From a virus (Duplodnaviria > Heunggongvirae > Uroviricota > Caudoviricetes): a stretch of 35,499 nt of DNA. The position numbers and the translations under genes were made by a program. Below the pieces are notes generated by a model that ran no database searches, was not told where the DNA came from, and saw nothing but the letters and a program-made list of their open reading frames with translations. The stretch lies in the IMG/VR virus record IMGVR_UViG_2718217860_000003; one strand, written 5' to 3'. Below are positions 2 through 35,499 of this stretch, piece by piece (within the stretch, counting starts at the first letter, position 1; each line of letters opens with the position of its first letter).

Positions 2-1297
2 TTAATTTTTCATTGCTTCGTTATGGGGCATGGTTGGGGCAAACTCGCTTAACTGTGTATTTAACAAAGCTACCTGTGCATTATTGTTTTCAGACATCCA
101 TTTTCCGTATACCTGAAATACCATTTGCGCATCTGCATGGCCCATCTGGTTTGCTATAAATGCCGGGTTAGCACCAGCTGTCAGCGACCAGCAGGCATAA
201 GTATGTCTCGACTGATATGATTTTCGATGGCGGAGTCCGGCACGTTTTATCGCTGCGTCCCACATCTGCCTTATTGAGTCAACGGTAAAATGGTCACCAT
301 AATTTTTTACTCTCGCTGACACTTCAGGTTGAAAAACAAAGGTGCATTTTTGTTTTTCTGTTCTGCCATACTCTCTGAGGTGAACATCAATGATATGCTC
401 TTTGCTCAGTCTCGTTAATGTCATCTGACTCCGGAGAGCGTCGATTGCTGGCTTAATAAGATGAATGACCCGATTGGTTCCTGCCTGTGTTTTTGGTACC
501 GTGAAACGGTCTTTTGCTAAATTTCTCCTGATCATCATTGTTCCATTTTTCAGATCTATGTCCTCCCATCCAAGTGCACACAGCTCACCAGGGCGAACGC
601 CAGTATAAACAGAAACACACCATAAATTTTTTGCTTGCTGATTTCTGCACGCATCGATAAGACGGATAAATTCCTCCCGCGAAAGAGGATCCGGAATGCT
701 TCTTGATTCCTTTAATGGCGAGATCCCCTTAAACGGATTATCTGCCAGGTAACCGTTATCAACACCAAACTGGAACACGGCGTTAAGATTTGTCATGTAA
801 TTATTTACAGTTACAGCCGATCTCCCTGGTTGTGTAACAATATAGTTACTTTTGGGGATCTGGTATCCAGTCAGTAGCTCTTTACGAACCTCCAGTAATT
901 TTTCTTTATTAATCGATGAGGCAAGATTTTTTTCACCGATTATGCTCAGGATATTTTTGATGACGGCACGGTATGTGTTGAGTGATGTTTTGGCGACTTC
1001 AGTTTCTTTCAGTGCCAGAAATTTTTCAGCCAGTTCTTTTATGGTTAAATCTTGTCGGGCCTCACCAAATTTTTCCAGATTGCGTGAGGAGGGAAACTGT
1101 TTTGCATAGTCGAAAACACCAGTTTTTATTGCGTAACAAACAGAGGCGCGTAGTTCACCTGCAACGCGCCTGTTTTTTGCTGTGTCAGGAACCCCCAGAT
1201 TTTCCCTGACTCTTACGCCTTTATAAACAAACCAGATACGTAATTTCCCTCCATGGTTTTCCACGCCTGTCGGATATTTCATTTCAACTTCTCTCAT
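2..1297 (-). CDS. int: Tyrosine site-specific integrase (phage integrase family)
   Basis: 431-aa ORF with a C-terminal H-x-x-R and Tyr-containing region (LRHRKSYQSRHTYAC...VYGKW) typical of tyrosine recombinases; first gene of the prophage, next to an excisionase-like gene. The likely true start is the second Met at 1282 (MKYPTGVE...), preceded by AGAGAAG. Confidence 0.9.
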   Translation of the reverse strand: MREVEMKYPTGVENHGGKLRIWFVYKGVRVRENLGVPDTAKNRRVAGELRASVCYAIKTGVFDYAKQFPSSRNLEKFGEARQDLTIKELAEKFLALKETEVAKTSLNTYRAVIKNILSIIGEKNLASSINKEKLLEVRKELLTGYQIPKSNYIVTQPGRSAVTVNNYMTNLNAVFQFGVDNGYLADNPFKGISPLKESRSIPDPLSREEFIRLIDACRNQQAKNLWCVSVYTGVRPGELCALGWEDIDLKNGTMMIRRNLAKDRFTVPKTQAGTNRVIHLIKPAIDALRSQMTLTRLSKEHIIDVHLREYGRTEKQKCTFVFQPEVSARVKNYGDHFTVDSIRQMWDAAIKRAGLRHRKSYQSRHTYACWSLTAGANPAFIANQMGHADAQMVFQVYGKWMSENNNAQVALLNTQLSEFAPTMPHNEAMKN

Positions 1298-1316: not shown

Positions 1317-1568
1317 TCAAGTAAGATGACGTCTTGGTCTCGCTGATGCCTGGCGCTCAATCCAGCGATCAATTTCTTCTAGGTTGTAAAAGCATGGACT
1401 GTTATCCCATGGCATACCGTCATGAGCGACATGCTTATATTCCCTTCCTTCCATAAACGATTTTTCCCGGGCCTTTTTTAACGTACCTTTTTTTATTCCT
1501 TTCAGCGCAATTAACTGCTCTTCGGATACCCATTTGCCGGGAGAGACAATCATGATTACTTCGCTCAT
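1317..1568 (-). CDS. xis: Excisionase-like small DNA-binding protein (Xis/AlpA-like)
   Basis: 83-aa basic ORF immediately upstream of int on the same strand, the canonical xis position. Confidence 0.55.
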   Translation of the reverse strand: MSEVIMIVSPGKWVSEEQLIALKGIKKGTLKKAREKSFMEGREYKHVAHDGMPWDNSPCFYNLEEIDRWIERQASARPRRHLT

Positions 1569-15439: not shown

Positions 15440-15515
15440 GGTCCTTTAGCTCAGTGGTGAGAGCGAGCGACTCATAATCGCCAGGTCGCTGGTTCAAATC
15501 CAGCAAGGGCCACCA
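15440..15515 (+). tRNA. tRNA with CAU anticodon (ileX/ileZ-type tRNA-Ile2 if lysidine-modified; reads as Met by anticodon alone)
   Basis: Cloverleaf: acceptor GGTCCTT/AAGGGCC, D-arm GCTCAGTGGTGAGAGC, anticodon loop CTCATAA, T-arm GGTTCAAATCC, 3' ACCA. One A-C mismatch at the base of the anticodon stem. Confidence 0.8.
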
Positions 15516-15621
15516 TCACAAACCGCCATGAGCTTATCAGGAAGAGCAGACGACACGATAACAGGGTTGTTGGTGCGGGGGGGGGGGCGGGTCCCCGATG
15601 GCGGTCCATTATCGGTATTCA

Positions 15622-15698
15622 GCGTTGTTAGCTCAGCCGGACAGAGCAATTGCCTTCTAAGCAATCGGTCACTGGTTCGAATCCAGTACAGCGCGCCA
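15622..15698 (+). tRNA. tRNA-Arg (UCU anticodon)
   Basis: Acceptor GCGTTGT/ACAGCGC, D-arm AGCTCAGCCGGACAGAGC, anticodon loop CTTCTAA, T-arm GGTTCGAATCC, 3' GCCA. Confidence 0.8.
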
Positions 15699-15808
15699 TA
15701 TTCATTCTTCCAGATTCCTTCCGGCAGAGCCTTATACTGGAATATACCTGGCTCAGGATATTGTTGAAAATATTATATGTTTGTCAAAAATAAAAGTTCT
15801 GTTAAGTA

Positions 15809-21638: not shown

Positions 21639-21738
21639 NNNNNNNNNNNNNNNNNNNNNNNNNNNNNNNNNNNNNNNNNNNNNNNNNNNNNNNNNNNNNN
21701 NNNNNNNNNNNNNNNNNNNNNNNNNNNNNNNNNNNNNN
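21639..21738. other. Assembly gap (100 N) between terminase and tail gene M
   Basis: Run of 100 ambiguous bases; terminase-large through tail gene H are absent from the window. Confidence 0.99.
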
Positions 21739-28358: not shown

Positions 28359-28369
28359 GTGGGGTGAAT

Positions 28370-31300
28370 ATGGCAGTAAAAATTTCAGGTGTACTGAAAG
28401 ACGGCACAGGAAAACCGGTACAGAACTGCACAATCCAGCTGAAAGCAAAACGTAACAGTACCACGGTGGTGGTGAACACGCTGGCATCTGAAAATCCGGA
28501 TGAAGCCGGGCGTTACAGTATGGACGTTGAGTACGGTCAGTACAGCGTTATTCTGTTGGTGGAAGGATTCCCGCCGTCACATGCCGGGACCATCACAGTG
28601 TATGAAGATTCCCGACCCGGTACGCTGAATGATTTTCTCGGTGCCATGACGGAGGATGATGCCCGTCCGGAGGCACTGCGCCGTTTTGAGCTGATGGTGG
28701 AAGAGGTGGCGCGTAACGCGTCCGTGGTGGCACAGAACACGGCAGCCGCGAAGAAGTCAGCCAGTGATGCCAGCACATCAGCCCGTGAGGCGGCAACCCA
28801 TGCGACTGATGCTGCAGGCTCAGCACGCGCAGCCAGCACGTCAGCCGGACAGGCCGCGTCGTCGGCTCAGTCAGCGACTTCCAGCGCAGGAACGGCATCA
28901 ACAAAGGCCACTGAAGCATCAAAAAGTGCTGCCGCTGCAGAGTCCTCAAAAAGCGCGGCAGCTACCAGTGCCAGTGCCGCAAAAACGTCAGAAACGAATG
29001 CTGCAGCGTCACAACAATCAGCAGCCACTTCTGCATCCACCGCGACTACGAAAGCGTCAGAAGCTGCCACCTCAGCCCGGGATGCGGCGGCTTCAAAAGA
29101 GGCGGCAAAATCATCAGAAACGAACGCATCCTCGAGCGCCAGTAGCGCAGCTTCCTCGGCAACAGCGGCAGGAAATTCCGCGAAGGCGGCAAAAACGTCA
29201 GAGACGAACGCCAGGTCTTCTGAAACGGCAGCGGGACAGAGCGCCTCGGCTGCGGCAGGCTCAAAAACAGCGGCTGCGTCGTCTGCCAGTGCAGCGTCAA
29301 CAAGTGCCGGGCAGGCCTCAGCCAGTGCTAGCGCCGCCGGAAAATCGGCAGAAAGCGCCGCATCGTCTGCTTCAACAGCCACAACGAAGGCTGGCGAAGC
29401 CACTGAACAGGCCAGCGCAGCAGCGAGGTCTGCTTCCGCAGCGAAGACATCCGAAACGAACGCGAAAGCGTCGGAAACCAGCGCAGAATCCTCAAAAACG
29501 GCTGCCGCATCGTCAGCCAGTTCGGCGTCGTCATCGGCATCATCTGCGTCTGCTTCAAAAGATGAGGCGACCAGACAGGCGTCAGCAGCGAAGGGTAGCG
29601 CCACGACGGCATCCACGAAGGCGACAGAGGCAGCTGGCAGTGCGACGGCAGCAGCTCAGAGCAAAAGTACGGCGGAATCCGCGGCAACGCGCGCTGAGAC
29701 AGCGGCAAAACGGGCAGAGGATATTGCATCCGCCGTGGCGCTTGAGGATGCGAGCACGACGAAAAAGGGGATAGTACAGCTCAGCAGTGCGACCAACAGC
29801 ACTTCCGAGTCACTGGCGGCAACGCCAAAAGCCGTTAAGGCCGCGTATGACCTGGCTAACGGGAAATACACCGCACAGGATGCAACGACAGCACAGAAAG
29901 GGATAATCCAGCTAAGCAGCGCGACCAACAGCACGTCTGAAACGCTGGCGGCAACGCCAAAGGCAGTAAAATCAGCCTATGACAATGCAGAGAAACGTCT
30001 GCAGAAAGACCAGAACGGCGCTGATATACCCGATAAGGGACGCTTCCTGAACAACATTAACGCGGTCAGTAAAACAGACTTTGCTGATAAGCGTGGTATG
30101 CGTTATGTGCGGGTTAACGCTCCTGCAGGTGCAACATCTGGAAAATATTACCCTGTTGTTGTTATGCGTTCTGCTGGCTCAGTAAGCGAACTGGCATCAA
30201 GGGTCATTATCACCACGGCAACGCGAACCGCAGGCGATCCGATGAATAACTGCGAGTTTAACGGATTTGTTATGCCTGGTGGCTGGACTGACAGGGGGCG
30301 TTATGCTTATGGAATGTTCTGGCAATATCAAAACAATGAACGAGCCATCCACTCAATAATGATGAGTAATAAGGGCGATGATTTGCGCTCTGTGTTCTAT
30401 GTTGATGGCGCTGCTTTCCCTGTTTTTGCGTTTATCGAAGATGGCCTGTCAATATCCGCACCTGGTGCTGATCTCGTTGTTAATGATACGACCTATAAGT
30501 TTGGGGCAACAAATCCAGCGACTGAATGTATCGCGGCGGACGTTATCCTTGATTTTAAGAGTGGGCGTGGTTTTTATGAGTCTCATTCGTTAATCGTTAA
30601 CGATAACTTGTCGTGCAAAAAACTTTTTGCCACAGACGAAATTGTAGCGCGTGGTGGTAATCAGATTCGAATGATAGGTGGGGAGTATGGGGCATTATGG
30701 CGTAATGATGGCGCTAAAACTTACCTGCTGCTTACCAATCAAGGTGATGTTTATGGTGGATGGAATACATTAAGACCGTTTGCTATTGATAACGCAACCG
30801 GCGAACTGGTTATTGGAACCAAGCTGTCTGCAAGTCTGAACGGTAACGCATTGACAGCAACAAAGCTGCAAACGCCAAGACTGGTTTCTGGGGTTGAGTT
30901 TGATGGTTCAAAAGATATTACTTTAACCGCCGCGCATGTGGCTGCTTTTGCCAGAAGGGCAACGGATACATATGCCGATGCGGATGGTGGCGTTCCCTGG
31001 AATGCCGAATCAGGCGCTTACAATGTCACCCGCTCTGGCGACAGCTATATTCTGGTTAACTTCTATACCGGAGTCGGAAGTTGCCGGACCCTGCAGATGA
31101 AGGCGCATTACAGAAATGGTGGTCTGTTCTACCGTTCTTCAAGAGACGGTTATGGTTTTGAGGAAGACTGGGCAGAAGTTTATACCTCGAAAAATCTTCC
31201 ACCAGAAAGCTACCCAGTCGGCGCACCAATCCCGTGGCCATCAGATACCGTTCCGTCTGGTTATGCCCTGATGCAGGGGCAGACTTTTGACAAATCTGCC

Positions 31301-31900
31301 TACCCGAAACTTGCAGCCGCTTATCCGTCAGGCGTGATCCCTGATATGCGTGGCTGGACGATTAAGGGCAAGCCCGCCAGTGGTCGTGCCGTATTGTCTC
31401 AGGAACAGGACGGCATAAAATCGCATACCCACAGCGCCAGCGCATCCAGTACTGATTTGGGGACGAAAACCACATCGTCGTTTGATTACGGCACTAAATC
31501 CACGAATAACACTGGTGCGCATACCCATAGTTTAAGTGGCAGCACGAATGCAGCTGGTAATCACAGCCATAGAGATGGCCGTCGATTTAACCCCAGTGTT
31601 TTTAAAGATACTTATCAATATGGTTATACAAGCTCAGGTCAAAATACCTGGGGTGTACAAGGCTCAGTAGGTATGTCTACGGGGGCGTTAGCTAATACCA
31701 GTACAGATGGTAACCATAGCCACTCACTGTCCGGCACAGCAGCATCTGCAGGTGCACACGCACATACTGTCGGTATTGGTGCACACACGCACTCCGTTGC
31801 GATTGGTTCACATGGACACACCATCACCGTTAACGCTGCTGGTAACGCGGAAAACACCGTCAAAAACATCGCATTTAACTATATTGTGAGGCTTGCATAA
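28370..31900 (+). CDS. stf: Side tail fibre protein Stf
   Basis: Begins [26 protein letters not shown]... (the track ORF starts 2 codons earlier at GTG); long Ala/Ser-rich low-complexity shaft, tandem repeat units, His-rich HxH C-terminal tip. Confidence 0.9.
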
Positions 31901-32481
31901 TGGCATTCAGAATGAGTGAACAACCACGGACCATAAAAATTTATAATCTGCTGGCCGGAACTAATGAATTTATTGGTGAAGGTGACGCATATATTCCGCC
32001 TCATACAGGTCTGCCAGCAAACAGTACCGATATTGCACCGCCAGATATTCCTGCTGGCTTTGTGGCTGTTTTCAACAGTGATGAGGCATCGTGGCATCTC
32101 GTTGAAGATCATCGGGGAAAAACCGTCTATGACGTGGCTTCCGGCGACGCGTTATTTATTTCTGAACTTGGCTCGTTACCGGAAAATGTCACCTGGTTAT
32201 CGCCGGAAGGGGAATATCAGAAGTGGAACGGCACAGCCTGGGTGAAGGATACGGAAGCAGAAAAACTGTTCCGGATCCGGGAGGCGGAAGAAACAAAAAA
32301 CAACCTGATGCAGGTAGCCAGTGAGCATATTGCGCCGCTTCAGGATGCTGCAGATCTGGAAATTGCAACGGAGGAAGAAATCTCGTTGCTGGAAGCCTGG
32401 AAGAAGTATCGGGTGTTGCTGAACCGTGTTAATACAACAACTGCACCGGATATTGAATGGCCAGTAGCACCTATAGGGTAA
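31900..32481 (+). CDS. tfa: Tail fibre assembly protein Tfa
   Basis: 193-aa ORF; start overlaps the stf stop (TAATG); conserved Tfa C-terminus ...[31 protein letters not shown]. Confidence 0.9.
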
Positions 32482-33070
32482 ATTCGTAATGATTACCTAA
32501 ATACGTTATTCTTTTGTTCAAAAAGTGATTTTTCTATAGGTAGGGAGTATGTTCTTGGATTAAGAATAAAAAATCGCCATGAAAGAGCTTCATGGCGAGT
32601 ACATAAACGTACAAAATATGATGAAAGTAGAGTGGCGTAAGCCACTATATTAAGATATGACAATAGCGAAGAAAAGTAAATAACATTTTATGGGCGTTTA
32701 ATTGTTAATTATAAAAACTAGAGTGCCCGATATTGTTTATCTTGCTTTAAAATAATGTACTCAAACCAAATTTTTGAGCTAAAAGCTCAAATAATATAAA
32801 TGCAATGATAATGTTTAATAAGACAATTAGCTTGCTTTGTATTTTCATTTCGGAATACTGTTAAGTAACTTTGATGACACTAACAATAGATCGGAATTTT
32901 CTTAGAGTCAATGGTCACTGTTTTTGCTTGCAAAGCAAATCTTTTTGGTGGTTATAAGTTTTCTTAATATAGTCACCTATGCAACTTGTTCCGTGTGGAG
33001 ATTAAAGGTTAAAATTTAATGCGAAGATGGAATTATAATATATTTTTTTATAATTAATTTAACCTTAACA

Positions 33071-33169
33071 TCGTTGCTGGCGGCATGGAAGAAATATCGG
33101 GTCTTGCTGATGTCGTGTTGGCACTTCCTTAGTGCGGTTATCGAATGGCCAGCTGTACCTGTGGGGTAA
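33071..33169 (+). pseudogene. Relic 3' fragment of a second tfa gene
   Basis: DNA homologous to the last 33 codons of tfa ([13 protein letters not shown]...IEWPAVPVG*), with no upstream reading frame. Confidence 0.7.
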
Positions 33170-33301
33170 AAACTTTATATGGGTGCTATTTTTATAATAG
33201 CTGGTAAAAACTGGCCGAACTGAAATTCACTGTTGATAAAAAAGATGTGTTTGAGTGTATGTCATTGTTTTCTTAATGGAATCCACTAGAATGCAGCGAA
33301 T

Positions 33302-33499
33302 TTAAGAAGGTGGGTTTTTATTGGAATATAAACTACAATAATGCTCAACTCGTTCGTAGAATTGTTTTTTCTTATTTTTTGGAATGCTAACCATTATATG
33401 CATTATGGGGGCGATACTTCCTGATAATTTACATGATGCATACATTGAAGCAATAAATTCAATATCATTGTCATCAAAGTTAAAGCTTTCTCCGTCCAT
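33302..33499 (-). CDS. Hypothetical small protein (uncertain)
   Basis: 65-aa ORF with AAGGA about 7 nt upstream of the ATG, in an AT-rich gene-poor segment. Confidence 0.3.
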   Translation of the reverse strand: MDGESFNFDDNDIEFIASMYASCKLSGSIAPIMHIMVSIPKNKKKQFYERVEHYCSLYSNKNPPS

Positions 33500-34215
33500 T
33501 TCAATTCCTTATGTGTTTGGCACAACTGATGCTGTATCCCATGAGAATTTATGCAAGTTGTTATGTTTGATTTGATATTGCAATGATAATTGTAGCTAAT
33601 TGTTTTCAATTGAGTGAAAGTTTATTTCGAGTGATTAAGTCGAAAAAAAAGATTTCTCACGGTTAGTAAGCGTATTAGGTTAGTATTCAGATATGAATGG
33701 TATTAATGACTAAATTTTCAATCATATATGGATTTTTATGCTGATGAAGATGTTTTATTTGGCGATTCGTCAAGCATCTTCACTTAAGTAATCGTATATT
33801 TTAAGAGTGCAAAAGAGAAAGGGACAACGTTGCTCGCACTCTGGATTAAATATAGGGTGTTGTTAAACTGCGTTGATACATAATTGTACCGGATATTGAG
33901 TGGTCTGAAGTCCCAGTCATTAAGTAATCGTTTCGTGATATGCCGCAGAAACGTTGTATGCAATAACGTTCTGCGGTTGGCTGATGCACTTTCGAGAGTG
34001 TATTGAATAATTTCAAGCCGTTATTGTTTTTACGCGTAACACCATGAAAAGATTGCTTATCTGTTGGGGTGTTTTTTGGGGCATATATGGGACAGAAATA
34101 GGCCACAGATAGATAGTAAGATCGAACTCAGGATGTTTTTGAAAAAATGTAACTATCTGAAAAAACCTAGAAAGCGCCAAGGAAACCACAGAATGAGAAA
34201 AAACATCTGTGAATT

Positions 34216-35499
34216 ATGGATTTCCAGTTATATTCGCTCGGCGCAGCGTTAGTGTTTCATGAAATATTTTTTCCTGAATCATCAACGGCAATGGCGTTAA
34301 TTCTGGCAATGGGAACCTACGGTGCAGGTTATGTGGCGCGTATTGTCGGAGCATTTATTTTCGGCAAAATGGGCGACAGAATAGGGCGTAAAAAAGTGCT
34401 CTTTATTACCATCACCATGATGGGGATCTGTACCACCTTAATTGGTGTGTTACCGACCTATGCACAGATTGGTGTTTTTGCACCCATCTTGCTGGTGACG
34501 TTGCGTATTATTCAGGGGTTGGGTGCAGGTGCGGAAATTTCCGGTGCCGGTACGATGCTGGCGGAATATGCGCCAAAAGGTAAGCGCGGAATTATCTCCT
34601 CATTTGTGGCTATGGGAACTAACTGCGGAACCTTGAGCGCAACGGCAATCTGGGCCTTTATGTTCTTCATTCTCAGTAAAGAGGAACTGCTGGCGTGGGG
34701 ATGGCGTATACCGTTCCTGGCGAGCGTTGTCGTGATGGTCTTTGCTATCTGGTTGCGTATGAATCTGAAAGAAAGCCCGGTCTTTGAGAAGGTTAACGAC
34801 AGTAACCAACCGACAGCAAAACCTGCACCTGCTGGTAGCATGTTCCAGAGCAAATCCTTCTGGCTGGCAACAGGGCTGCGTTTTGGTCAGGCGGGTAACT
34901 CCGGGTTAATTCAGACTTTCCTTGCAGGCTATTTAGTGCAGACGTTATTGTTTAACAAAGCAATTCCAACAGATGCATTGATGATCAGTTCGATTCTCGG
35001 CTTTATGACCATTCCGTTCCTTGGTTGGTTATCCGATAAAATTGGTCGCCGGATCCCGTATATTATTATGAATACCTCCGCGATTGTGCTGGCATGGCCA
35101 ATGCTTTCTATCATTGTAGATAAAAGCTATGCCCCGAGCACCATTATGGTTGCACTGATTGTGATTCATAACTGTGCGGTGCTGGGATTATTTGCTCTGG
35201 AAAACATTACCATGGCAGAAATGTTCGGCTGTAAAAACCGCTTTACCCGGATGGCTATTTCTAAAGAAATTGGTGGTCTTATCGCTTCCGGTTTTGGTCC
35301 TATCCTGGCGGGTATTTTCTGCACCATGACGGAATCCTGGTATCCGATCGCCATTATGATCATGGCATATTCAGTAATTGGTTTAATCTCTGCGCTGAAA
35401 ATGCCAGAGGTGAAAGACCGTGATTTAAGTGCGCTGGAAGACGCTGCGGAAGATCAACCGCGTGTTGTAAGAGCTGCGCAACCTTCCAGAAGTCTGTAA
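34216..35499 (+). CDS. ydfJ: MFS transporter (YdfJ-like metabolite:H+ symporter), 5'-truncated at the prophage junction and running off the window end
   Basis: 427-aa ORF with multiple TM helices and an MFS signature (GKMGDRIGRKKV); the first TM helix and N-terminus are missing; no stop within the window. Confidence 0.75.
   Translation: MDFQLYSLGAALVFHEIFFPESSTAMALILAMGTYGAGYVARIVGAFIFGKMGDRIGRKKVLFITITMMGICTTLIGVLPTYAQIGVFAPILLVTLRIIQGLGAGAEISGAGTMLAEYAPKGKRGIISSFVAMGTNCGTLSATAIWAFMFFILSKEELLAWGWRIPFLASVVVMVFAIWLRMNLKESPVFEKVNDSNQPTAKPAPAGSMFQSKSFWLATGLRFGQAGNSGLIQTFLAGYLVQTLLFNKAIPTDALMISSILGFMTIPFLGWLSDKIGRRIPYIIMNTSAIVLAWPMLSIIVDKSYAPSTIMVALIVIHNCAVLGLFALENITMAEMFGCKNRFTRMAISKEIGGLIASGFGPILAGIFCTMTESWYPIAIMIMAYSVIGLISALKMPEVKDRDLSALEDAAEDQPRVVRAAQPSRSL

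Follow-up and report, generated by a model that had tools for sequence, protein, structure and literature searches.

The AT-rich DNA between the tail fibre assembly gene tfa and the transporter gene ydfJ, at positions 32482–34215 of the 35,499-nt stretch analysed here (the window; IMG/VR record IMGVR_UViG_2718217860_000003), is best read as the attR-proximal end of a ~46-kb lambda-like prophage inserted in codons 27–32 of ydfJ, the site also occupied by Qin in E. coli K-12. We put the probability of this reading at about 0.85. The segment has tfa on one side and, on the other, a ydfJ frame that lacks its first 28 codons. It ends at the attR of an integrated lambdoid prophage with a tyrosine integrase: the gene is split, and its two halves share a core sequence. 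Internally, it is a mosaic of five pieces, namely an AT-rich module (seg1), a tfa relic (A), an orphan AT-rich stretch (seg2), a second tfa relic (B) with a hairpin, and the P arm of attP. Integration at ydfJ and the att sequence used there have both been published before, and this is an ordinary right-hand prophage junction. The main result serves annotation rather than discovery, in that the exact prophage boundary is now fixed at the core (34214–34224), and apparently empty AT-rich DNA can be explained by a P arm together with a stack of tail-fibre module fossils. The only mildly new content of the segment is an unannotated, YncL-like candidate gene of 33 codons.

Comparison with prophage-free ydfJ pinpointed the junction, as the initial annotation had expected it would. 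When the left half of attL and the right half of attR are joined at the 11-bp core TTATGGATTTC (34214–34224, plus strand), the ydfJ 5′ region of prophage-free strains is restored at 384 of 384 nt, confirming the proposed insertion into ydfJ. The core is exactly identical across attL, attR, attP, and attB, and sits within an imperfect att block, TGAATT(T)ATGGATTTC(A/C)AG (34210–34227, plus strand; 18/19 bp). It is present at both ends in L002, in the window, in HannyBb, mEp460_ev081, and PhiR42_1, in K-12 Qin, and in intact attB; Tritos has the same arms, but with one substitution in the core. A matching repeat had been predicted to the left of int, outside the window, and it lies at attL, ~40 bp left of position 1. 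The attR core had likewise been placed near 34216, which is correct, but upstream of the reading frame, which is not, since it overlaps the ATG at 34216.

The frame that starts there (34216–35499, plus strand; TIGR00883 metabolite/H+ symporter, 6.5e-136; Pfam MFS_1) is a ydfJ without codons 1–28, ribosome-binding site, and promoter. Its product is identical to K-12 YdfJ (b1543) at 427 of 427 residues, which settles that the transporter is YdfJ, and corresponds to residues 29–455 of the uninterrupted 455-aa protein. In an identical genome, PGAP labels the same ORF ydfJ “missing N-terminus”. The loss of the N-terminus noted from the sequence is therefore real: the start codon and the missing 28 codons are found between rspB and int at attL, and the frame cannot be extended upstream to an intact N-terminus because of an in-frame TGA at 34210–34212. 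Annotations of the K-12 type thus list a truncated gene as the 427-aa “YdfJ”, while ydfJ is uninterrupted in 2009 of 5426 complete E. coli genomes (~37%), which carry the 455-aa form.

The recombination machinery lies at the other end of the window. A tyrosine recombinase gene adjoins attL (2–1297, minus strand; Arm-DNA-bind_2 5.7e-24, Phage_integrase 4.1e-18; Pfam PF00589 and PF12167; PHROG integrase), and it is annotated as an integrase in NZ_CP049967.1. Int has both the catalytic and the arm-binding domain, and an adjacent excisionase gene follows it (DUF1233, 1317–1568, minus strand). The P arm of attP occupies 33943–34213 (plus strand) in attR, and is ~86% identical to DNA beside int in the free phages HannyBb, Tritos, PhiR42_1, and mEp460_ev081, and in K-12 Qin. 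In HannyBb, mEp460_ev081, and PhiR42_1, the same core stands between this P arm and the P′ arm of our attL side, beside a 431-aa int. Candidate arm-type Int sites occur in both arms: ATGGGGCA (23–30) and TTGGGGCA (34–41), 11 bp apart inside the int 3′ end (span 23–41, plus strand), on the P′ side, and TTGGGGCA (34076–34083) and ATGGGACA (34087–34094) in the P arm. Matches to WTGGGRCA number six in the window against 5.4 expected, a count at chance level, yet four of the six make up two 11-bp-spaced pairs beside the att core. Given this striking placement, the pairs may be bound by Int.

In the mechanism that we propose, attP and attB would be recombined by an Int with an arm-binding domain, the exchange falling within the 11 bp that they share, TTATGGATTTC. 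Codons 1–28 of ydfJ and its promoter would be left at attL, ~46 kb away, and the remainder of the gene would stay at attR, starting at the former Met29. Excision, which would depend on the P arm (~270 bp) as well as on Int, Xis, and host factors, is predicted to yield an attP with TGAATTATGGATTTCAAG and an attB with TGAATTTATGGATTTCCAG.

K-12 Qin is among the closest known counterparts, with the same attB, the same 11-bp core, an identical 427-aa truncated ydfJ, and the related P arm, and its RefSeq feature boundary is the first base of the core. The two differ in what lies between the P arm and tfaQ: ynfT, ydfK, and pinQ in Qin are replaced here by the two relics, seg2, and seg1. Moreover, Qin is a 20-kb remnant, whereas the prophage studied here, as found in NZ_CP049967.1, is ~46 kb with a full gene set. 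The absence of 12 kb of structural genes was considered as a deletion making the prophage defective, and rejected; it is a 100-N assembly gap. The general layout is that of lambda (tail fibre genes, AT-rich accessory DNA, P arm, core, P′ arm, int, and a heterobivalent Int), and the segment would be the counterpart of the lambda b region together with the P arm. Unlike in lambda, however, the core, arms, and attB are of another sequence, the arm-type sites do not follow the lambda consensus, and a search of the P and P′ arms found no IHF consensus. Nakamura et al. 2021 (PMC8112680, S7 Fig legend) defined attB and attP for ydfJ, along with an att sequence of 18 or 19 bp. That block fits TGAATT(T)ATGGATTTC(A/C)AG and, judged by its length alone, may well be the same sequence as ours. 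The lambda-like PPydfJ phages of that study share the integration locus, and there too attB was taken from a prophage-free strain; they differ in that they carry effector loci (nleG, nleC, and others) at the position of this segment, of which there are none here.

As the initial annotation had it, the segment is markedly AT-rich, at 33.3% G+C over 32482–34215 compared with 47.1% for the whole window, 48.1% for tfa, and 47.0% for ydfJ. The composition is uneven: 28.8% in seg1, 50.5% in relic A, 31.5% in seg2, 34.3% in relic B, and 38.7% in the P arm. The description of the segment as gene-poor, with only weak small ORFs, applies to most of these ORFs, but not to a minus-strand ORF of 33 aa (32747–32848) with significant similarity to YncL. 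Nor is the segment simply junk, as its last ~270 bp are the P arm of attP and its first part holds a terminator-bounded candidate small gene. Searches of the segment’s ORFs against Pfam, PHROG, and PADLOC gave nothing meaningful, and NCBIfam gave only the YncL match and a negligible one to GlgS. An Rfam scan of 32300–34400 (E <= 1) returned no known sRNA; its matches were IS009, which falls on the tfa coding sequence, and one chance miRNA hit.

Seg1 (32482–33065) travels with this tfa allele. Together with the tfa 3′ end (window 31800–33061), it is 96% identical in phages ev099 and mEp332; it also follows tfa in prophages integrated elsewhere on the chromosome, and it is present in 828 of 5426 E. 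coli genomes (about 15%), the same search finding 942 places. In all records listed it is unannotated. The segment is identical in 578 genomes, and ARL09/232 is one carrier strain. The hairpin cited from the sequence at ~32573–32597 is real: CGCCATGAA/AGAGC/TTCATGGCG spans 32575–32597 and can be extended to 32574–32598. It is an intrinsic terminator on the minus strand, with an 11-bp stem and then AUUUUUUAUUC, and no T-run follows the hairpin on the plus strand. The minus strand folds at −18.2 kcal/mol (z = −5.9), which none of 200 shuffles equalled, and a terminator scan recorded 11 pairs and then TTTTTTATTC at 32598–32574, the form of a rho-independent terminator. When genome representatives were scanned with the hairpin pattern, only three chance matches in unrelated MAGs were found, and no other enterobacterial species. 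A promoter-like TTGACT-17-TATTGT (32883–32911, minus strand; 9/12 consensus match) is placed to drive the 33-aa ORF; such sites are not above chance in the region, where a consensus scan found five against 8.3 expected.

Morons are autonomous accessory cassettes with deviant composition, their own promoter and terminator, and presence/absence variation among related phages. Seg1 resembles them in its deviant G+C (28.8%), its own terminator, and its patchy distribution, and appears to be a moron-like cassette, its promoter being a consensus-level guess. On its minus strand, the ORF for a YncL-like membrane protein would end in the strong intrinsic terminator, which would keep leftward transcripts from reading through into tfa in antisense.

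This ORF, MKIQSKLIVLLNIIIAFILFELLAQKFGLSTLF (32747–32848, minus strand), is unannotated, lies upstream of the terminator, and is a candidate gene for a small single-pass membrane protein. YncL (b4598), a small membrane protein of 31 aa that belongs to the E. coli stress response, shares with it the pattern M-x3-S-(K/R)-x2-VL-x-N...A..LF.L...(K/R)FG. By BLASTP, the two are identical at 11 of 28 positions (39%) and similar at 18 of 28 (E = 2e-7), and none of 20,000 composition-preserving shuffles reached the alignment score. Like members of the YncL family, the ORF product is ~30 aa long with a single hydrophobic helix and a similarity that goes beyond composition. It matches the NCBIfam equivalog model YncL (NF000537) at E = 1.3e-5 and 25 bits, while the model’s cut-off is 35 bits and K-12 YncL itself scores 68.6; being under the cut-off, it is therefore YncL-like and not an equivalog. 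Eight other small ORFs of the segment matched no family. The two genes also differ in setting, yncL being chromosomal, next to ortT, and preceded by the Shine-Dalgarno sequence AAGGTGG, and the 33-aa ORF being prophage-borne with no recognisable Shine-Dalgarno before it. In K-12 Qin and HannyBb, the equivalent place, from the tail-fibre region to attR, holds same-strand genes for small hydrophobic proteins of the YnaM/YnfT family (NF041477; Rac and Qin prophages). These proteins have no sequence relationship to the ORF, which scores 34 in local alignment with them against 60 with YncL and does not match NF041477.

Gene callers systematically overlook small membrane proteins. That they almost never call this ORF (three records among about 15 billion proteins) nevertheless counts against the candidate gene. 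A phmmer search of the whole library returned only the ORF itself and one frameshift variant in public assemblies. A tblastn search of phages gave no match, although ev099 encodes the ORF identically; the low-complexity filter is probably responsible. The ORF is open in 49 of 49 full-length copies, with no indels, and five of its seven variable sites are synonymous, the most of any of the six frames (P about 0.035, on only seven variable sites).

Overproduction of YncL leads to a depolarised membrane and a condensed nucleoid (PMC12542507). We tentatively suggest, at somewhat less than even odds, that seg1 is a functional moron, and that its unannotated prophage paralogue of YncL is expressed in ~15% of sequenced E. 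coli and, like YncL, partly depolarises the inner membrane of the lysogen. If true, stress tolerance, sensitivity to antimicrobial peptides, or superinfection could be altered, and a depolarising stress protein borne by a phage on a mobile tail-fibre module would be a moron that affects host physiology. The unannotated ORF is the only item of the segment that could repay a small experiment. A competing explanation, to which we also give a little under an even chance, is that the 1.7 kb except the P arm is inert, decaying DNA, in which all small ORFs are spurious, the likeness to YncL is a chance resemblance of two hydrophobic peptides, and the hairpin terminates tfa or the late operon. This would fit with an ORF that has no Shine-Dalgarno, falls under the curated YncL cut-off, was never annotated by PGAP in the records listed, exists in one frameshifted version, and is no less variable (seven sites in 102 nt) than the neighbouring non-coding DNA. 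However, the shuffles, the profile match to this ORF and to none of the other eight, the intact frame in all 49 copies, and the excess of synonymous changes speak against coincidence, and the terminator has its T-run on the minus strand rather than on the strand of tfa.

Beyond seg1, the segment records older tail-fibre genes. The intact tfa at its left boundary (31900–32481, plus strand; Caudo_TAP 3e-42) is annotated as tfaQ. Its 3′ end matches Rfam IS009 (RF02111) at 162.8 bits, above the gathering threshold of 117 bits, and the relics score below it (32 bits for A, 40.8 bits for B); the match is to tfa coding sequence and is not evidence for an RNA gene here. One tfa relic had been reported from the sequence, and there are two, both of them 3′ ends. 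Relic A (33066–33170, plus strand) is 105 bp from the last ~100 bp of tfa, with frame-breaking indels, and is 81–88% identical to the intact 3′ end; the stretch homologous to ev099 and mEp332 ends at 33061, just short of it. Relic B (~33694–33926, plus strand) is the 3′ end of a lambda-type tfa whose frame is broken by a 1-nt deletion. The homology is firm from 33808, and over 33808–33978, relic B and the hairpin after it match the 3′ end of lambda tfa and the hairpin beyond that gene at 81% identity.

Between the relics, seg2 (33171–33693; 523 bp) occurs in only ~590 E. coli genomes, nearly always in the same arrangement, and has no match in the phage collection. PGAP calls a 65-aa “hypothetical protein” in it (33302–33499, minus strand), which matches nothing in Pfam, PHROG, or PADLOC, and in NCBIfam only GlgS (E = 0.026; 14.5 bits, where the cut-off is 105). 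Its homologues are exclusively near-identical E. coli sequences of 45–83 aa, with the C-terminal third variably frameshifted after an A-run; we rejected it as a gene, and it is probably spurious.

Each relic, with its own old downstream DNA, is a fossil of an earlier tail-fibre module. Illegitimate joins would have left it behind when modules were replaced, or else tandem prophages would have collapsed. An IMG/VR search identified no ancestor in which an intact tfa is continuous with relic A and seg2 (five matches, mostly loci known from the seg1 hairpin search). PMC8112680 documents two to four prophages clustered at ydfJ, and the two relics could thus stem from prophages that once stood side by side and were later mostly deleted, rather than from module replacement. 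The downstream DNA kept by each relic would agree with such a history, as would the single remaining P arm and core. On the other hand, the DNA between the relics holds no remnant of an att core, an int gene, or a P′ arm, and we consider tandem prophages a somewhat doubtful source, although the present structure would be the same under both histories, and the data do not separate them.

In EHEC and EPEC, lambda-like prophages carry effector loci at this position, after the tail fibre genes and before attR. A degraded exchangeable locus with remnants of type III secretion effectors would share that position and a similarly AT-rich composition, and effector loci are described in prophages at ydfJ (PMC8112680), but we regard it as very improbable, since no type III effector gene was found between the tail fibre genes and attR, no ORF matched Pfam, PHROG, or PADLOC, NCBIfam gave only YncL and one negligible match, and, in a phage collection with many Stx phages among its members, matches outside ev099-type phages were confined to the relics and the P arm, as were those to effector-carrying phages.

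The several hairpins reported in the segment do fold: besides the seg1 terminator, these are 32631–32648 (z = −4.4) and an outer hairpin at 33943–33977 (z = −2.0 to −2.5). The latter occurs both downstream of lambda tfa and where the Qin-type P arm has its outer edge. On the minus strand, TTTTT comes after it in HannyBb and K-12 Qin, making a terminator that faces int, but not in the window, and one stem position differs on both sides, being C-G in HannyBb and K-12 and A-T here.

The AT-rich segment between tfa (31900-32481, plus strand) and the transporter gene lies at an ordinary prophage–host junction, which the initial annotation had read correctly. The transporter frame at 34216-35499 (plus strand) encodes 427 aa, and identity over its whole length (427/427) to K-12 YdfJ (b1543) bears out its assignment to ydfJ. 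The product corresponds to residues 29–455 of the full 455-aa YdfJ found in a strain whose site is free of prophage, so that residues 1–28 are missing, as expected from the earlier remark that the frame begins without its N-terminal part. We looked for an intact in-frame N-terminus upstream and found none: a TGA at 34210-34212 lies in frame two codons before the ATG, and therefore no N-terminus can be hidden there. The truncated gene appears to be without promoter and ribosome-binding site and to retain only half of the first transmembrane helix, and is probably non-functional; it shows no further decay, being identical to its intact counterpart and to K-12.

At the left end of the prophage, between rspB and int, we find the ydfJ promoter region and codons 1–31, followed by phage DNA. 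The only long word common to this region and the surroundings of 34216 is the 11-bp core TTATGGATTTC, at 877-887 of L002 (the same prophage with its flanks in a complete E. coli genome) and at 34214-34224 of the window; it is the matching repeat that was to be sought left of int, beyond the window. The attR core had been placed within about 100 bp upstream of 34216, and its nearness to the junction holds, but “upstream” does not, since the core overlaps the start codon. The sites read ...GCGCTTGAATTTATGGATTTCAAGAGTCAT... (attL), ...ATCTGTGAATTATGGATTTCCAGTTATATT... (attR), and ...CCTGTGAATTATGGATTTCAAGAGTCAT... (attP of the free phage HannyBb). The left edge of attR is phage-type (no extra T) and its right edge host-type (C at 34225), while the edges of attL are the reverse, host-type on the left and phage-type on the right; strand exchange was therefore confined to the 11-bp identity. 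Joining L002 700-887 to window 34225-34420 yields 384 nt that are 100% identical (384/384) to the rspB–ydfJ region of many strains, and this comparison with prophage-free ydfJ both locates the exact junction and confirms the proposed insertion into the gene. The uninterrupted form, with a 455-aa ydfJ, is present in 2009 of 5426 genomes; about 63% of complete E. coli genomes are without the uninterrupted arrangement at the site. Int thus recombined attP with attB inside the core, splitting ydfJ after codon 28–31, and the P arm and the accessory phage end now adjoin the 3′ part of ydfJ.

Neither the integration site nor the truncated ydfJ nor the att sequence is new; they are on record in the K-12 Qin annotation and in PMC8112680. 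The RefSeq feature “cryptic prophage Qin” of K-12 starts on the first base of the core. For lambda-like phages at ydfJ, the legend of S7 Fig in Nakamura et al. 2021 (PMC8112680) defines an att sequence of 18 or 19 bp, with attB from a prophage-free strain. The imperfect block TGAATT(T)ATGGATTTC(A/C)AG, 18 bp in attP and 19 bp in attB, agrees with that legend by length only.

The P arm of attP (33943-34213) shares ~86% identity with the sequence immediately adjacent to int in four free phages (HannyBb, Tritos, PhiR42_1, and mEp460_ev081) and with K-12 Qin, and would be needed for excision. The integrase (2-1297, minus strand, with the excisionase gene next to it) is heterobivalent; because it has an Arm-DNA-bind_2 and a catalytic domain, arm-type sites are expected. 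Two pairs of WTGGGRCA, all on the plus strand with 11-bp spacing within each pair, lie in the P arm (34076 and 34087) and in the P′ arm inside the int 3′ end (23 and 34), and are candidate arm-type Int sites. Since the motif's window-wide count is at chance (6 found, 5.4 expected), it is placement alone that is suggestive. No IHF consensus was found in the P or P′ arm. A hairpin (33943-33977) forms the outer edge of the P arm, and lambda has an almost identical one after the tfa stop codon; one stem position differs on both sides, A-T in the window versus C-G in Qin-type phages. In HannyBb and K-12, TTTTT follows this hairpin on the minus strand, facing transcription from int across attP, which is comparable to lambda tI/sib. 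This T-run is absent in the window because lambda-type sequence of a tfa relic (relic B) abuts the hairpin.

The segment as a whole (32482-34215) has 33.3% G+C, against 48.1% in tfa, 47.0% in ydfJ, and 47.1% in the whole window, and is thus as AT-rich as had been described. Several complete E. coli chromosomes carry its 1734 bp without a single difference, and 578 of 5426 complete E. coli genomes have 80% or more of it in one place. In NZ_CP049967.1 it is flanked by tfaQ and by a ydfJ with the PGAP label “missing N-terminus”, downstream of which lie ydfI, ydfZ, and rspR. Counted from the first base beyond the stop of the ydfJ 5′ fragment, the window and this prophage are 99.97–100% identical, except at 21639-21738, a run of 100 N. 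In its place NZ_CP049967.1 has 12.2 kb that encode terminase, head, and tail functions, from what is left of the DUF1441 gene through the terminase large subunit, the portal, and a protease-capsid fusion to the tail genes as far as the tape measure. A true deletion of structural genes is therefore ruled out, the 100 N being an assembly gap; core to core, the prophage measures ~46.4 kb in the complete genome.

The left part of the segment, seg1 (32482-33065, 28.8% G+C), travels with the current tfa allele: phages ev099 and mEp332 show 96% identity over 31800-33061 (tfa 3′ end plus seg1), ending just short of the first tfa relic. The same module occurs downstream of tfa in prophages elsewhere, one adjoining sitABCD and another yodB/zinT. 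In strain K-15KW01 (NZ_CP016358.1, 2444-3223) it ends beside sitD of the sitABCD iron/manganese transporter operon, so that it sits in prophages at several chromosomal sites. We find seg1 in 828 of 5426 genomes, and none of the records listed annotates any feature in it. Further right, seg2 (33171-33693) is an orphan stretch in only ~590 E. coli genomes, nearly always in the same arrangement, with no match in the phage collection. The 65-aa PGAP “hypothetical protein” within it (33302-33499, minus strand) is in our view not a real gene: searches of Pfam, PHROG, PADLOC, and NCBIfam gave no meaningful family (the sole match, NCBIfam GlgS, was negligible), and its relatives among 5.8 billion protein clusters are from E. 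coli only (88–98% local identity), their lengths spanning 45–83 aa owing to a frameshift after an A-run that alters the C-terminal third.

A single tfa relic had been reported; a relic is indeed present, but there are two, both 3′ ends in direct orientation. Relic A (33066-33170) is the last ~100 bp of another tfa, with frame-breaking indels, and relic B (~33694-33926, homology being firm from 33808 onwards) is the 3′ end of a lambda-type tfa and has lost 1 nt. They are probably fossils of earlier tail-fibre modules. Each new stf–tfa–downstream module may have entered by an illegitimate join within the 3′ end of the tfa before it. A history of tandem prophages at ydfJ that later collapsed fits the data equally well, and a passage of PMC8112680 documents such tandems.

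The sole new element is an unannotated YncL-like ORF of 33 codons in seg1 (MKIQSKLIVLLNIIIAFILFELLAQKFGLSTLF; 32848-32747, minus strand), preceded by a promoter-like TTGACT-17-TATTGT (32911-32883, minus strand) and followed by a tail of ~150 nt with a second hairpin (32631-32648). Beyond this, the hairpin first quoted at about 32573-32597 is real, at 32575-32597 and extendable to 32574-32598 (−18.2 kcal/mol, z = −5.9; 0 of 200 shuffles as stable). On the minus strand it forms a strong terminator (32598-32574, then TTTTTTATTC), which would stop leftward seg1 transcription before an antisense run into tfa. The peptide matches the NCBIfam model NF000537 (“stress response membrane protein YncL”) with E = 1.3e-5 and 25 bits, short of the 35 bits set for an equivalog, and the genome-derived K-12 YncL in BLASTP with 11/28 identities and 18/28 positives (E = 2e-7). 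When either peptide was shuffled with its composition preserved, 0 of 20000 shuffles attained the local alignment score of the pair. YncL and YnfT, run as positive controls, matched their own NCBIfam families; eight other small ORFs of the segment matched none. Copies were gathered from 47 IMG/VR loci found via the terminator hairpin, independently of the ORF, and from annotated loci, giving 49 full-length copies (31 unique). The frame is open in all 49 and free of indels, against five indel columns in the 265 nt to its left. Its seven variable sites comprise five synonymous changes and two replacements (A24D and I18V), the most synonymous changes of any of the six frames, with P = 0.035 for at least five of six transitions being synonymous. 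At the same time, no Shine-Dalgarno sequence precedes the ORF, the promoter-like site is not above chance, nucleotide variability is no lower than in the flanks, the peptide is gene-called only three times among ~15 billion proteins, once as a frameshift variant at an A-run, and the element is absent from the representatives of all other enterobacterial species. On this sequence evidence, we judge an expressed YncL-like gene about as likely as not, or slightly more so; if expressed, it would be a further small membrane protein of a known kind. YncL itself, whose function is only partly known, is induced by heat shock and in minimal medium, and its overproduction causes sublethal membrane depolarisation and nucleoid condensation (PMC12542507). 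In K-12 Qin (L007 3891-4004) and HannyBb (L004 3063-3176), the equivalent place on the same strand holds YnfT (37 aa, YnaM/YnfT family NF041477), and in phages of the ydfJ site the stretch from the tail-fibre region to the P arm seems to be a recurrent location for small hydrophobic proteins.

AT-rich accessory DNA between tail fibre genes and attR is a standard place of morons and effector loci; searches of the segment against Rfam, Pfam, PHROG, PADLOC, and the phage collection gave no effector, defence, or RNA family. In the intact tfa 3′ end, Rfam IS009 (RF02111) scores 162.8 bits (gathering score 117) at 32300-32441, a match bounded on the left by the start of the search and probably beginning at ~32243; this “RNA family” falls on the coding sequence of tail fibre assembly proteins and on the relics of their genes. 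The stf product (28364-31900) is a 1178-aa side tail fibre whose N-terminal half is a long low-complexity stretch (28764-29774) rich in Ala, Ser, Thr, Lys, and Glu, with ~60% G+C and a strong A-over-T skew; it yields long spurious reading frames, both out of frame with stf and on its complementary strand. The prophage also carries hokD, rem, dicB, ydfD, and ydfABC, as in Qin, and tRNA-Ile and tRNA-Arg genes downstream of the antiterminator gene (L002 16363-16616; ~15440-15700 in the window).
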